Below, piece by piece: positions 12,729 to 46,182 of a stretch of 64,000 bases of DNA. Positions within the stretch are counted from its first letter, which is position 1. The number at the start of each line of letters is the position of its first letter. Both the position numbers and the translations under genes were made by a program. Source of the DNA: Candidatus Dormibacteria bacterium (GTDB lineage Bacteria; Chloroflexota; Dormibacteria; Aeolococcales; Aeolococcaceae); assembly GCA_049511615.1 (NCBI GenBank), contig JBEKXW010000001.1, positions 47,517 through 111,516 of the forward strand. Direction: 5' to 3'. The notes beneath the pieces are model-generated. The model was not told the origin of the DNA, ran no database searches, and worked only from the letters and a program-made list of their open reading frames with translations.

Positions 12729-12844
12729 CGACGCTCCCCTCGTCAACTCGCAGTAGTCATAGCACACCGCCCCGATCCAGTCGAGTTGATGCGAATCCCG
12801 ACCCCCAAAGTCAAGATTCGCCCTTCACCGGGTAGACTTCGCCC

Positions 12845-35256: not shown

Positions 35257-37161
35257 CTACGCGCCCAGCGCGGCCGCCATCGCTCCCGGGTCCCGCCCAC
35301 GGCGGCGTCGCAGCATGGCGGCCCCGATCGCCCCCGCCGCCCCCGTGCACACCGCGGCGGCCAGGAAGATGGTGCGCAGCTCGTCGAGCAGCGCCTGCTG
35401 CGCCAGGGTGTTGTAGGCGGCGCAGCTGAGCGGGTGCGCCGGGCAGAGGGTCGCCGCCGGCGGGATCGTCGAGGCTTCCTGGTAGTAGCGGTGCAGCCCG
35501 ATCGCGGTGAGCAGGGAGATCCCGACCAGCATCCCGACCATCCGCGCCACCACCACCAGGGCGGCGGCGAGCCCGTGGCTGGCCGCGGCGACGGCTCCGA
35601 GGATGGCCGCATTGATGGGGGCGATGGCCAGCCCGAAGCCGAGGCCACAGCCGACCAGCACCACGTCGCTGAGCCGGAGCCCCGGCCCCAGCGAGCTCGC
35701 GCTCCACCCGCCCATGAGGACGAACATCGCGGTGGTCAGGGCCATCCCCAGCAGCGTGGTCAGCCGGTAGCCGAGGCGCTCGCAGAGGAAGCCGCCGAGC
35801 ACGGCCCCGACCGGAACCGCGGCCAGCAGGCGGAGCAGCACCAGGGCGGCTCCGAGCTGCGAGCCGTAGGCGGTGGCCCGCGCAAAGATGGGGACGTCGA
35901 CCAGCGCCGCCATCAGGCCGGCGCCGATCGCCAGGTTGGCCAGCAGGGCTCCGGCCGCCGCGGGATCGCGCAGCTCGCCCAGTGGCAACAGGGCGCTGGC
36001 GACCCGGGTTTCGCGCACCGCGAAGGCGGCGGCGACCACCAGGGCGAGGGGGAGCAGAACGGCGGCGGCGGGCGCCACCAGGCCCTGGCTCGGGTCCGCG
36101 GCCGAGAAGCTGACCACCACGAAGGCGAGCACCACGGCGAGCAGGGCCCCACCCAGGCCGTCGACCCGTCTCCAGATGTCGGGGAGGCGGCGCAGGGGGA
36201 GGAGCCGCGGCCGGCCGGCCTTCCCCGACAGACCCCATGCGATGGAGAGGGCCGTCGCGACCAGCGCGACCACGGCGAGCGGGGTGGTCCACGCCGAGCT
36301 GCCGGCGAGCGGAGCCCAGAGGACGCCCCAGACCTCGCTCTCGGCGAGGGGCCCGGGGGCCGCCACCGCCAGGCCCCCCGCGACCACGCCGGTGGCGAGG
36401 AGGAGCGTTCCGGTCAGGTCCATCCGGCGTCCTGAAACGGGGCGGCGCCGAGCCGGGGGTTCGGGATCCACCGCTGAAGGACCCGAGAGCGCGCCGGCGT
36501 CCGCGGCCGGCCGCAGTCCCGCCGGCCGCGACAGCACGAAGCCGGCTCCGAGCAGGGCCGCCAGGGGCAGGTTCAGCCAGAAGATCAACCGCCAGGTCGA
36601 GAAGCTGAGGATCGCGGCACCGTAGAGGGGGCCGAGCACCGAGCCCAGCTCCTGGACCCCGCCGACCACGCCGAGCGGGACGCCCCGCCTCCCCGCCGGC
36701 CAGAGGTCGGCGACGATGGCCAGGGTGACCGGCACCAGCCCGCCGCCGCCGGCTCCCTGGAGGGCCCGGCCCACCACCGCTCCGGTGAGGTCCTGTGCCG
36801 AGGAGGTGACCAGCGATCCGAAGGCGAACACCAGGAGGCAGCCGGCGAAGACCGGGGCCCGGCCGAGGATGTCGGAGAGCCGGCCCAGGAGTGGCAGCAG
36901 CGCGACGTAGCCGAGCAGGAAGCCGCTGATGATGGGGGTCGCCGCCTCCAGGTGGTCGAGGCTCAACCCGATGTCGCTCATGATCGCGGGCAGGGCGAGC
37001 ACTACCACGTAGGTGTCGGCGGCCGCCAGCATGACTCCGGCGGCGGCGAAGCCCAGCCGCCAGCCGGAGCGTCGCGGTGCCCCAGTGTCCCCCGGCTCCT
37101 CGCCGAGGAGATTCACGACCGCTCCGCCGTCGGTCCCGCGGCCGGGATTCGGGCCCTCCAC
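35257..37161 (-). CDS. MFS transporter, 14-TMS DHA2-like (P55/Rv1410c-like; operonic with LprG-like lipoprotein)
   Basis: GFAAAGVMLAAADTYVVVLALPAIMSDIGLS... and GRLSDILGRAPVF motifs. Starts 5 nt after the stop of the lipoprotein gene. Confidence 0.8.
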   Translation of the reverse strand: MEGPNPGRGTDGGAVVNLLGEEPGDTGAPRRSGWRLGFAAAGVMLAAADTYVVVLALPAIMSDIGLSLDHLEAATPIISGFLLGYVALLPLLGRLSDILGRAPVFAGCLLVFAFGSLVTSSAQDLTGAVVGRALQGAGGGGLVPVTLAIVADLWPAGRRGVPLGVVGGVQELGSVLGPLYGAAILSFSTWRLIFWLNLPLAALLGAGFVLSRPAGLRPAADAGALSGPSAVDPEPPARRRPVSGRRMDLTGTLLLATGVVAGGLAVAAPGPLAESEVWGVLWAPLAGSSAWTTPLAVVALVATALSIAWGLSGKAGRPRLLPLRRLPDIWRRVDGLGGALLAVVLAFVVVSFSAADPSQGLVAPAAAVLLPLALVVAAAFAVRETRVASALLPLGELRDPAAAGALLANLAIGAGLMAALVDVPIFARATAYGSQLGAALVLLRLLAAVPVGAVLGGFLCERLGYRLTTLLGMALTTAMFVLMGGWSASSLGPGLRLSDVVLVGCGLGFGLAIAPINAAILGAVAAASHGLAAALVVVARMVGMLVGISLLTAIGLHRYYQEASTIPPAATLCPAHPLSCAAYNTLAQQALLDELRTIFLAAAVCTGAAGAIGAAMLRRRRGRDPGAMAAALGA

Positions 37162-37165
37162 CTGT

Positions 37166-37849
37166 TCAGGGGGTGGGGGGCGGGGTGATGCTCACGTTCT
37201 CGCCATAGTTGTCGAGAACAAGGTGGAACGTGCTCTGGTGCCCGGCCTCGAAGATGGGGCCGGTGAGGTCGACCTCCCGGACCTGGTTGTCGGAGGTGTC
37301 GATGGAGAAGACCGCCGCGACGGGCTGGCTGGGCTGGGCATCCACGAGCAGTGAGGCCACCAGCTTGCCCGGGAGGGTGGCAACGACCTGCTGGAGCGAT
37401 TCGCCGGTGAGCCGCACCTGGGAGCCGATGCTGGGCTTCTGAGCCGACGTGAGCAGGGTGGAGATCCCCGTGCTGGGGTTGAGCAGCTGGCCGGGGTCCG
37501 CAAACCCGTACTGCGCTGGGGTCGCCTTCTGCCAGTCGAGGGTGAAGGGGGGCAGGACGTAGAACTGGCCTCCGGTGGACACCACCTTCACCTGGAGGGG
37601 GAATCCGCTCTCCTCGACGGTGAGCGTGCCCGAGAAGCCGTCGGGTCGCAGCGCGTCCCCCACCGCCGAGGTCAGCTCCAGGCCGCTCCCCGGCGTGTTC
37701 TGGCTGGTGAGCTGGACGTGGAAGGCCGTGGTCTGGTCGAAGGTGGCCTTCGCCCGCTGGAGCAGCGTCGTCGCGGACGGCCCCGAGTAGCCACAGGCTG
37801 CGGCGGCCGCGGCCAGGCCGGCCACGGCGGCGAGACGCCAGCGCTTGAT
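37166..37849 (-). CDS. LppX/LprG (LprAFG) family lipoprotein; start reassigned to ATC at 37849
   Basis: Mature part (TLLQRAKATFDQTTAFHVQLTSQ...GENVSITPP) matches the LppX_LprAFG fold family. Track ORF starts at GTG 37825 (MAGLAAAAAAC). An in-frame upstream extension gives MKRWRLAAVAGLAAAAAAC, a canonical lipoprotein signal with a lipobox. Confidence 0.65.
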   Translation of the reverse strand: MKRWRLAAVAGLAAAAAACGYSGPSATTLLQRAKATFDQTTAFHVQLTSQNTPGSGLELTSAVGDALRPDGFSGTLTVEESGFPLQVKVVSTGGQFYVLPPFTLDWQKATPAQYGFADPGQLLNPSTGISTLLTSAQKPSIGSQVRLTGESLQQVVATLPGKLVASLLVDAQPSQPVAAVFSIDTSDNQVREVDLTGPIFEAGHQSTFHLVLDNYGENVSITPPPTP

Positions 37850-37947
37850 GGTCGAGCCCTCCCGTCGATCAGATCCCCATCGGCCGCCGAGTATGACCGA
37901 CCCGCGCCGGGAGTGGAAGCCGGCATGGCTGCCACCGCTCCCGATCC

Positions 37948-38655
37948 GTGCCGGCGAGGGCGGTGGGTGGGCGCTCCGGCACGCGGGCCGGGCCGGTGCG
38001 ACATGGTCCGCCGTTCGTGGCGCTATCGTGGCAGGCCGTGTCCGCGCCGACCCGCTGCCGGCATCGCGTCCTCCGGCTCGTCTCGCTGCTCCTCCTCGTC
38101 GCTGCGATCGGCAGCTTCGGGCTCAGCATGGTGCGGATCTCCTTCTCGCCCGCGTTCATTGCCGGGCTCCAGCAGCTCCCCCGGCCGGTCACGCTTCCCG
38201 CCGCCTGCGTGAACGGCGGCATCGCCGCCTACAGCGGCCTGTCGCTGGCCGCCGGGGGGGCTCCCACCGTGAATGCCGGATGCCTGCGGCAGATCCAGGA
38301 TCCCGGTCAGGCGAACCTGGGCATCCAGCCACTGGCCCTGCTGGCGGCCCTGGCCATCCTCGGGGCGGCGGCGGTGACGGCGTGGGGGCCACCCGGCCAC
38401 CGCCGCGCCACCGGCGTGCTCTCGGTCGTCTCGGCCGCCCTGCTGGTGGTGAACACGCTGCGCCTGGTGGACGTCTTCGCCGGGCATTTCGGCCAGGGCA
38501 CGGCGGCGATCACCAGCGGCCCGGATCTCGGGCTCTGGGTGGTCGGCGGGCTGCTCCTCCTGGCCGTGCTCGCCCAGGTGGGCTCCGCCGGTCTGGGCTG
38601 GGCGCGACAGGCCCTGGCTCCCCTCGAGGACGGGGCTCCGGCGCCCCACCCCTGA
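37948..38655 (+). CDS. hypothetical membrane protein
   Basis: Track ORF with ~4 hydrophobic helices (LRLVSLLLLVAAIGSFGL, LALLAALAILGAAAV, VLSVVSAALLVVNTL, LWVVGGLLLLAVLAQV). Start uncertain. No family recognised. Confidence 0.35.
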   Translation: MPARAVGGRSGTRAGPVRHGPPFVALSWQAVSAPTRCRHRVLRLVSLLLLVAAIGSFGLSMVRISFSPAFIAGLQQLPRPVTLPAACVNGGIAAYSGLSLAAGGAPTVNAGCLRQIQDPGQANLGIQPLALLAALAILGAAAVTAWGPPGHRRATGVLSVVSAALLVVNTLRLVDVFAGHFGQGTAAITSGPDLGLWVVGGLLLLAVLAQVGSAGLGWARQALAPLEDGAPAPHP

Positions 38656-46093: not shown

Positions 46094-46182
46094 GATCGCC
46101 GAAATGTACCAGGGGTGACGGTCCCGCTCCGCGTACCATCCCTGCCGTGTCCACAGCCAGCCGGACGGCCGCCGACGGTGAC

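Follow-up and report, generated by a model that had tools for sequence, protein, structure and literature searches.

The lprG-like gene on the minus strand of contig JBEKXW010000001.1, from a Candidatus Dormibacteria bacterium, probably begins its translation at an AUC codon (37849-37847) that lies behind the Shine-Dalgarno (SD) sequence GGGAGGG. The window, by which we mean the whole 64,000-nucleotide (nt) stretch of DNA that was analyzed, has a G+C content of 70-78%. Its host is an uncultured peat-soil bacterium of the Dormibacterota, and its nearest relatives are metagenome-assembled genomes (MAGs) of Candidatus Dormibacterota from peat and soil. Judged from orthologous sequences, the AUC appears to be an old and conserved start of lprG in the Dormibacterota and not an assembly error or a mutation. 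The comparison shows where the start lies, that it is conserved, and that it is exchanged with ATG or GTG at the same site.

A probable start codon behind the SD sequence

By the canonical rule, the open reading frame (ORF) of lprG starts at GTG 37825 and encodes 219 amino acids, as given in the ORF list. The first-pass annotation had claimed that no ATG, GTG, or TTG lies in frame between the upstream stop and this GTG. The sequence, the ORF list, and a codon-by-codon walk all agree with the claim: the stop is TGA 38125-38123, and none of the 99 in-frame codons from there to GTG 37825 is one of the three. The near-cognate codons in frame upstream of the GTG are ATC 37849, ATA 37894, ATC 37945, and ATA 38026. 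Reading from ATC 37849, the codons are ATC AAG CGC TGG CGT CTC GCC GCC GTG GCC, and the translation is I/M-KRWRLAAVAGLAAAAAAC-GYSGPS, with the lipobox Cys encoded by TGT 37795-37793. The coding sequence re-annotated in this way (37166-37849, minus strand) has 227 codons plus a stop, TGA 37168-37166.

The extended N-terminus, (M)KRWRLAAVAGLAAAAAAC, translates as the lipoprotein signal that the first-pass annotation had described. After the initiator residue, the rest of the signal peptide (37793-37846, minus strand) consists of a KRWR n-region, the h-region LAAVAGLAAAAAA, and the lipobox AAAC. By inspection and orthologue conservation, only the ATC start provides a lipoprotein signal, (M)KRWR-LAAVAGLAAAAAA-C. 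The product of GTG 37825 is MAGLAAAAAAC, which was rightly said to lack an n-region and which places 10 uncharged residues before the Cys. The GGGAGGG was likewise found where it had been described, at 37863-37857 on the minus strand, with a 7-nt spacer to the ATC and a distance of 8 nt when counted from its GGAGG core. The ATC (37847-37849, minus strand) is the sole start-like codon behind this SD and is proposed as the initiation codon, read as formylmethionine (fMet) via initiator tRNA. In the mechanism that we favor, the GGGAGGG 7 nt upstream would select the AUC and the initiator tRNA would decode it. The resulting pre-lipoprotein, fMet-KRWRLAAVAGLAAAAAA-Cys, would be exported and lipidated, with cleavage at Cys19. 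The initiator tRNA reads near-cognate AUH codons and gives an N-terminal Met. In E. coli, AUC is able to initiate, and the product begins with Met (bioRxiv 10.1101/063800).

The protein itself is an ordinary member of the LprG/LppX family with a major facilitator superfamily (MFS) partner. Its LppX_LprAFG domain (Pfam PF07161, E=1.1e-17) aligns residues 26-220 with positions 2-191 of a profile of 192 and spans the mature protein, and phmmer matched the product to the M. tuberculosis LprG structures 3mh9 (E=2e-9) and 3mh8 (E=6e-8).

Base composition and predicted folding were also considered at the proposed boundary. Upstream of 37849, G+C is flat over the three codon positions (0.68/0.72/0.76), and the value for third positions (GC3) is 0.76 upstream of the ATC versus 0.88 downstream. 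The combination of GGAGG, 8 nt, and ATC is not rare in itself, with six further copies in the window, all of them inside coding regions where the upstream GC3 is 0.84-1.0. What goes beyond chance for the lprG ATC is that it sits at a coding boundary and that orthologues conserve it. In predicted folding, each of 200 shuffles was more stable than the lprG 5′ region (z=+2.2), which suits a place of initiation that has to be accessible. The alifold structure obtained for the leader is without covariation, and a conserved RNA structure there was rejected. Three crude surveys of the window for a second SD-preceded ATC start returned none, which is a weak test given that many genes here have no SD; ATC 5124, for example, is followed two codons later by GTG ATG. 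On present evidence from these surveys, the AUC start is specific to this gene.

The SD-defined site across orthologues

Orthologues were compared at 84 loci, of which 25 came from species-representative genomes, 57 from metagenomes, and 2 from an exact protein look-up. For each locus, the DNA was read from the promoter region through the lipobox Cys. Among the roughly 50 distinct lprG 5′ regions sampled, about 32 have ATC at the SD-defined start, and the remainder have ATG or GTG and nothing else, a result that favors ATC initiation. The first-pass annotation had left two options, initiation at ATC or an ATG-to-ATC substitution. The orthologues support the former; the latter, like a miscall, is contradicted by an ATC that is clade-wide and recurs in independent MAGs and metagenomes.

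The window's own clade, with 75-100% protein identity, contributes 20 distinct 5′ regions that share the block CATACTCGGCGGCCG-ATG-GGG-(10-11 nt)-GGGAGGGC-TCGAyC-ATC-AAy. Three elements are invariant in 20 of 20: a -10-like CATACTCGGC box, GGAGG as the core of the SD, and, 8 nt past GGAGG, the first two bases (AT) of a codon that is exclusively ATC or ATG. The ATG form occurs at four tips (L008/L050, L041, L083, and L084) that are nested among ATC tips in different parts of the neighbor-joining tree, which carries no support values. In L008/L050 and L041, the ATG at the SD site is the sole canonical start that yields a signal peptide, which marks the site as a working initiation site. The window's ATC is the homologue of that working start.

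In every relative that has the ATC, GGAGG precedes it by 7 or 8 nt. The codon just upstream of the ATC alternates between ATC and ACC among relatives, like an unconstrained position. In L040, the in-frame translation around the SD reads PTEVA instead of RREGS, yet GGAGG and its 8-nt spacing to the ATC are retained, which argues that the SD is conserved and not a peptide. The distance from the ATC to the Cys falls into three length classes (18, 21, or 22 codons) with the frame preserved, and L043 and L055 carry 9-nt in-frame insertions within the signal-peptide region. The distance from a conserved upstream ATG, discussed below, to the ATC shifts by single bases (30 vs 31 nt). As in the window, no canonical start gives a functional N-terminus in L005, L007, L009, L016, L026, L042, L043, and L055, and the strictest case is L080 of a distant clade. 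L029, which reads GGGAGGGC TTG ACC ATC, has an in-frame TTG two codons before the ATC and 1-2 nt past the SD. This TTG is probably too close to the SD for use as a start, but since the codon is canonical, gene callers could choose it.

A second group of lprG loci, at 45-50% identity, has a comparable arrangement: a TATACT box, a leader of about 30 nt, GGAGG, 7-8 nt, ATC, an n-region, a hydrophobic core, and a lipobox. Its members are L061, L063/67, L064, L072, L074, L075, L080, and L081, with L079 alike on another branch. Examples of the start are ATC GTC CCG CAC CGC (IVPHRV...) and ATC ACC CCA CAT CGT CGC (ITPHRR...). In L080, the -10 box is followed by an in-frame TGA, and not one ATG, GTG, or TTG comes before the Cys. 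Sister lineages of this clade have GGGAGG, 6 nt, and GTG at the equivalent site, and further lineages have an ATG or a leaderless-type layout at the lprG start. On the neighbor-joining tree, again without support values, ATC occurs in at least two separated groups. Within the distant clade, L061, L064, L072, L074, and L075 also carry, between TATACT and GGAGG and immediately 5′ of the SD, a short inverted repeat rich in G+C, examples being CCCGG-AGCG-CCGGG and CCGGA-TCG-TCCGG. RNAalifold on this repeat returned a 4-bp CCGG stem only, with no covariation, and a small CCGG...CCGG hairpin noted by eye is unsupported.

The GTG at 37825 (37823-37825, minus strand) has in its favor that it is the first canonical start in the frame and that the public gene calls P0001 and P0002 use it. 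It is preceded by no SD, leaves only the 10 uncharged residues before the Cys, and is not conserved: close relatives have CTG, GCG, GCC, GTC, GTT, or ATG at this position. The first-pass annotation had named orthologues starting at this GTG as evidence that would speak against ATC initiation; by that criterion the comparison comes out for ATC, and the GTG was ruled out as the start. A sequencing error or a private ATG-to-ATC mutation was ruled out as well, since the same ATC and the same extra base in a G-run are found in many MAGs and metagenomes that are independent of one another and come from several projects. A pseudogene in decay, with its start lost or miscalled, would have to be reconciled with an ATC that is present in dozens of independent contigs and MAGs, with a signal region that stays in frame and signal-like, and with a mature part under purifying selection. 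For the nine relatives that share the window's configuration, the ratio of nonsynonymous to synonymous change (dN/dS) in the mature part is ~0.25-0.4, dS reaches 0.6, and the N-terminus remains signal-like. All relatives with the upstream ATG out of frame retain a basic n-region and a hydrophobic core, and their lipobox fits [AVI]-A-[AG]-C. With purifying selection and a signal-like N-terminus, the genes of the nine relatives are functional. Translation from GTG 37825, or a gene that has decayed or been misread, is therefore most improbable.

No public gene call has the proposed AUC start. P0001, P0002, P0012, P0016, P0018, and P0020 are shortened and lack the signal peptide, and P0006 and P0013 are over-extended, at up to 309 amino acids. 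A search of about 15 billion public protein sequences for ATC-initiated versions found 0 of 9. With public calls truncated or over-extended, any survey of the secretome or the lipoproteins of this phylum misses the protein.

The upstream AUG and its three-codon reading frame

The first-pass annotation overlooked an out-of-frame ATG at 37880 with a three-codon ORF, the -10-like box that precedes it, and the sister clades in which the ATG is in frame. The box is the hexamer CATACT (37890-37895, minus strand), a candidate promoter element within the invariant CATACTCGGC, and TATACT occupies the equivalent place in distant lprG loci. In L010, L013, and L059, the -10-like box stands exactly 7 nt before the ATG or GTG start of lprG itself, which is a leaderless-type layout. 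The short ORF, ATG GGG ATC TGA (37869-37880, minus strand), is out of frame with lprG. Its ATG (37880-37878) is 9 nt after CATACT, and its stop, TGA 37871-37869, is 5 nt before the SD and 19 nt before the ATC. This layout recurs in seven distinct 5′ regions (17 loci) and in four variants (ATGGGGATCTGA, ATGGGGACCTGA, ATGGGGTCCTGA, and ATGGTGATCTGA), the codons being ATG-GGG-ATC, ATG-GGG-ACC, ATG-GGG-TCC, or ATG-GTG-ATC, each then followed by TGA. Across the seven sequences, it is conserved as an ORF, with ATG and TGA constant and the third codon variable. With just three codons and the third of them variable, the peptide itself cannot be what functions.

In further branches, this upstream ATG shares the frame of lprG, and the routes to that state differ. 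A large in-frame clade, shorter by 1 nt, reads MGSRRREGSIINRRGL..., the upstream in-frame codon of L003/L035 is GTG, and L040 has CGA in place of the TGA of the short ORF plus one base lost further on. In no locus but L077 does the upstream ATG begin a long ORF that overlaps the start of lprG. Compared with L066, which comes from the same sample (Ga0182031), L077 is one G short behind its upstream ATG (GGG, not GGGG) and has a tblastn identity of 54% vs 79%; it looks like an error-prone or frameshifted contig rather than a fourth configuration.

The two start-like sites may not change independently of one another. In L041, the sole change in the 45-nt upstream block is ATG to AGG, and it coincides with ATC to ATG at the SD site; L008 has ACG at the upstream site and ATG downstream. 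A rule by which every change of the downstream codon to ATG goes with loss of the upstream ATG was tried and is broken by L083 and L084, which keep both, leaving a weak hint only. Fisher-type counts on distinct sequences are no more than suggestive and lack phylogenetic independence. On the minus strand, GAUGG (37881-37877) is complementary to CCAUC (37851-37847), and the alifold consensus pairs them. L008 and L041, which have the downstream ATG and no upstream ATG, no longer have this pairing, which is too short and invariant to judge. In the window and L016, about 120 extra bases (~37900-38018, minus strand) separate a conserved CCTGCCACGATAGCGCC block (38035-38019) from the lprG -10 box. 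This stretch is missing in other clade members and has no Rfam match.

Whether an ATG so close to a -10-like box would be used can be gauged from the rest of the window. There are 57 TANNNT sites, and 21 of them have an ATG or GTG 5-10 nt downstream. A long coding-like ORF begins at 12 of the 21, as against 5-10 sites and 0-2 coding-like ORFs at control distances. Starts with this layout are found, for example, at 12833, 16355, 38024, 46134, and 46717 on the plus strand and at 46108, 35183, 34514, 31782, 27961, 21332, and 6324 on the minus strand. Only about one-third of the coding-like ORFs in the window have an SD near their start. Leaderless initiation is probably common in the source organism, as it is in mycobacteria, where a 5′-terminal ATG or GTG is necessary and sufficient for translation (PMC4633059).

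It is plausible that a leaderless three-codon ORF feeds or regulates the AUC start. The mRNA would begin a few bases past CATACT, with AUG 37880 at or near its 5′ end. This AUG would recruit ribosomes and be translated as a leaderless ORF, Met-Gly-Ile-stop, and ribosomes that end at the UGA, a short distance ahead of the SD, would restart at the AUC. Such a restart would compensate for, or regulate, an intrinsically weak AUC. In the in-frame clades, the same ribosomes would read through and produce a longer n-region. In E. coli, a 20-nt gap between stop and start with an SD allows ~40% reinitiation (PMC3592434).

The constant AUG and UGA could also be read in an entirely different way. The gene for release factor RF2, prfB, uses a programmed +1 frameshift at an in-frame UGA, with a slippery CUU-U P-site codon and an upstream SD-like stimulator. 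If lprG started at the 5′-proximal AUG 37880 and shifted frame in a prfB-like manner at the UGA, the product would be MGI-DRREGSTIKRWRL..., equal in length to the in-frame product of the sister clades (MGSRRREGSIINRRGL...). The layout resembles prfB in that a short upstream frame ends in UGA, the main frame is +1 relative to that of AUG 37880, and relatives exist with the frames fused. Conservation of the AUG, and of the UGA three codons on, holds for 7 distinct sequences, and sister clades fuse the same AUG in frame by 1-nt changes, as in species that have lost the prfB frameshift. The details of the putative shift site are unlike prfB, however. There is no slippery codon of the CUU-U type, the codon before the UGA varies (AUC, ACC, UCC), and +1 re-pairing to UCU or CCU would be poor. 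A stimulator about 3 nt upstream of the shift site is missing, with only AUG GGG preceding a site that is 6 nt from the AUG, and the SD lies downstream. A frameshift would also leave unexplained the invariant SD at a fixed distance from AT[C/G], and it does not account for L008 and L041, in which ATG stands at the SD site with no AUG upstream, or for the distant clade, which has SD and ATC and no upstream AUG. We regard a frameshift as very unlikely.

Several observations weigh against initiation at the AUC and against its supposed helper. An AUC produces only ~1-2% (0.02-3%) of the AUG level in E. coli (bioRxiv 10.1101/063800), so output from the AUC alone would be low. In clades with the upstream ATG or GTG in frame, the ATC could be a plain internal Ile codon, and part of the conservation within the window's clade may therefore come from shared ancestry over a modest divergence. 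The link between the upstream AUG and the AUC is weak, given the two loci that keep both ATGs, and the distant ATC clade does without any upstream AUG. For leaderless translation of the short ORF in particular, the 9-nt spacing between box and ATG is at the long end in the window (3 of 12 cases) and the box is CATACT, not TANNNT, from which it follows that AUG 37880 may carry a very short leader of 1-3 nt. A scan of 37700-38200 with an E. coli-type consensus found no promoter or terminator, and this too counts against the short ORF's part.

The AUC could be the start with the three-codon ORF giving it no help, the short ORF being left over from an ancestral in-frame leaderless start or else acting as a brake, in which a terminating ribosome covers the SD and the AUC. 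The distant ATC clade without an upstream AUG fits this account, as does the retention of the upstream ATG in L083 and L084 despite an ATG at the SD site. The outgroups L010, L013, and L059 look plainly leaderless, so an in-frame leaderless AUG may be ancestral, and a UGA 5 nt from the SD is inside the ribosome footprint. Against this account, every out-of-frame sequence keeps ATG and TGA as the codon between them varies, and in L041 the upstream block is altered solely at the ATG, coincident with the change of ATC to ATG. We consider an idle or inhibitory short ORF rather unlikely.

With initiation at the AUC retained as the preferred reading, a more elaborate version of the helper can be put forward, one that we hold to be speculative and doubtful. 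[quoted passage not shown] Output of the lipid-export pair LprG-P55 would be tied to leaderless-initiation capacity and to IF3 stringency, making the leader a sensor of growth state or dormancy in the manner of the infC AUU. In a broader version, tolerance or exploitation of AUC starts would go further in the Dormibacterota than in model bacteria.

Neighboring genes and relation to known systems

Directly downstream of lprG is a gene for an MFS transporter, a P55-like operon partner (35257-37161, minus strand; MFS_1 Pfam E=1e-32), whose 634-amino-acid ORF begins 4 nt beyond the lprG stop on the same strand; L083 has the identical gene order. The start of this gene is ambiguous, being either GTG 37161, without an SD, or GTG 37116 behind GGAGC. 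A start at GTG 37161 would imply translational coupling to lprG, and if the two genes are coupled, a weak lprG start would limit the transporter too. On the other side of lprG lies a divergent neighbor (38024-38655, plus strand), a predicted membrane protein of 205 amino acids with TATCGT at 38024-38029, 8 nt, and GTG 38038. It probably starts at this GTG, and the listed ORF start of 37948 is probably over-extended. In most relatives, the equivalent ATG of this neighbor is about 30 nt from the lprG -10 box. Searches for Rfam-type RNA families and tRNAs in the window found none.

An AUC-started lprG would belong to a known and very small class of conserved near-cognate starts, the textbook case of which is the AUU of infC. 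What is new is the gene family, the AUC codon, the fact that this codon is in the majority and recurs across a candidate phylum, and, for one clade, its association with a three-codon 5′ ORF. A family in which AUC is the majority start, occurs in at least two separate clades, and toggles solely with ATG or GTG offers a set of natural mutants with which to test what sustains near-cognate starts. Loci with the 5′ AUG in frame and loci with it out of frame likewise form a natural series for work on leaderless short ORFs and reinitiation. No new principle is involved unless coupling to the short ORF or a phylum-wide relaxation of start-codon choice proves real.

Several known systems are available for comparison. 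The locus is like that of M. tuberculosis LprG (Rv1411c) and P55 (Rv1410c) in its LppX_LprAFG domain, its lipobox Cys, and an MFS_1 gene directly downstream on the same strand. It differs in coming from another phylum, in the distance of the similarity (E ~1e-9), and in its proposed AUC start in place of a canonical one. The upstream region would be like the leaderless short ORFs at the 5′ ends of mycobacterial operon mRNAs, very short ORFs ahead of a gene whose 5′-proximal AUG follows a -10 box at a few bases' distance (PMC4633059; bioRxiv 10.1101/834739). Unlike those, the ORF here has three codons, of which the third is variable, and the start downstream of it would be non-canonical. The closest parallels for the start codon itself are in E. 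coli, where the only confirmed starts besides AUG, GUG, or UUG are those of infC and pcnB, both AUU (bioRxiv 10.1101/063800). The infC AUU lies 3 nt past the stop of the preceding ORF, and part of infC initiation is reinitiation (PMC3592434). The lprG codon is AUC and not AUU, its product is an exported lipoprotein and not a translation or RNA-processing factor, and, unlike in infC, the preceding ORF has three codons and is not a full gene. What lprG appears to share with infC and pcnB is a conserved AUH codon behind an SD, read by the initiator tRNA and inefficient by design.

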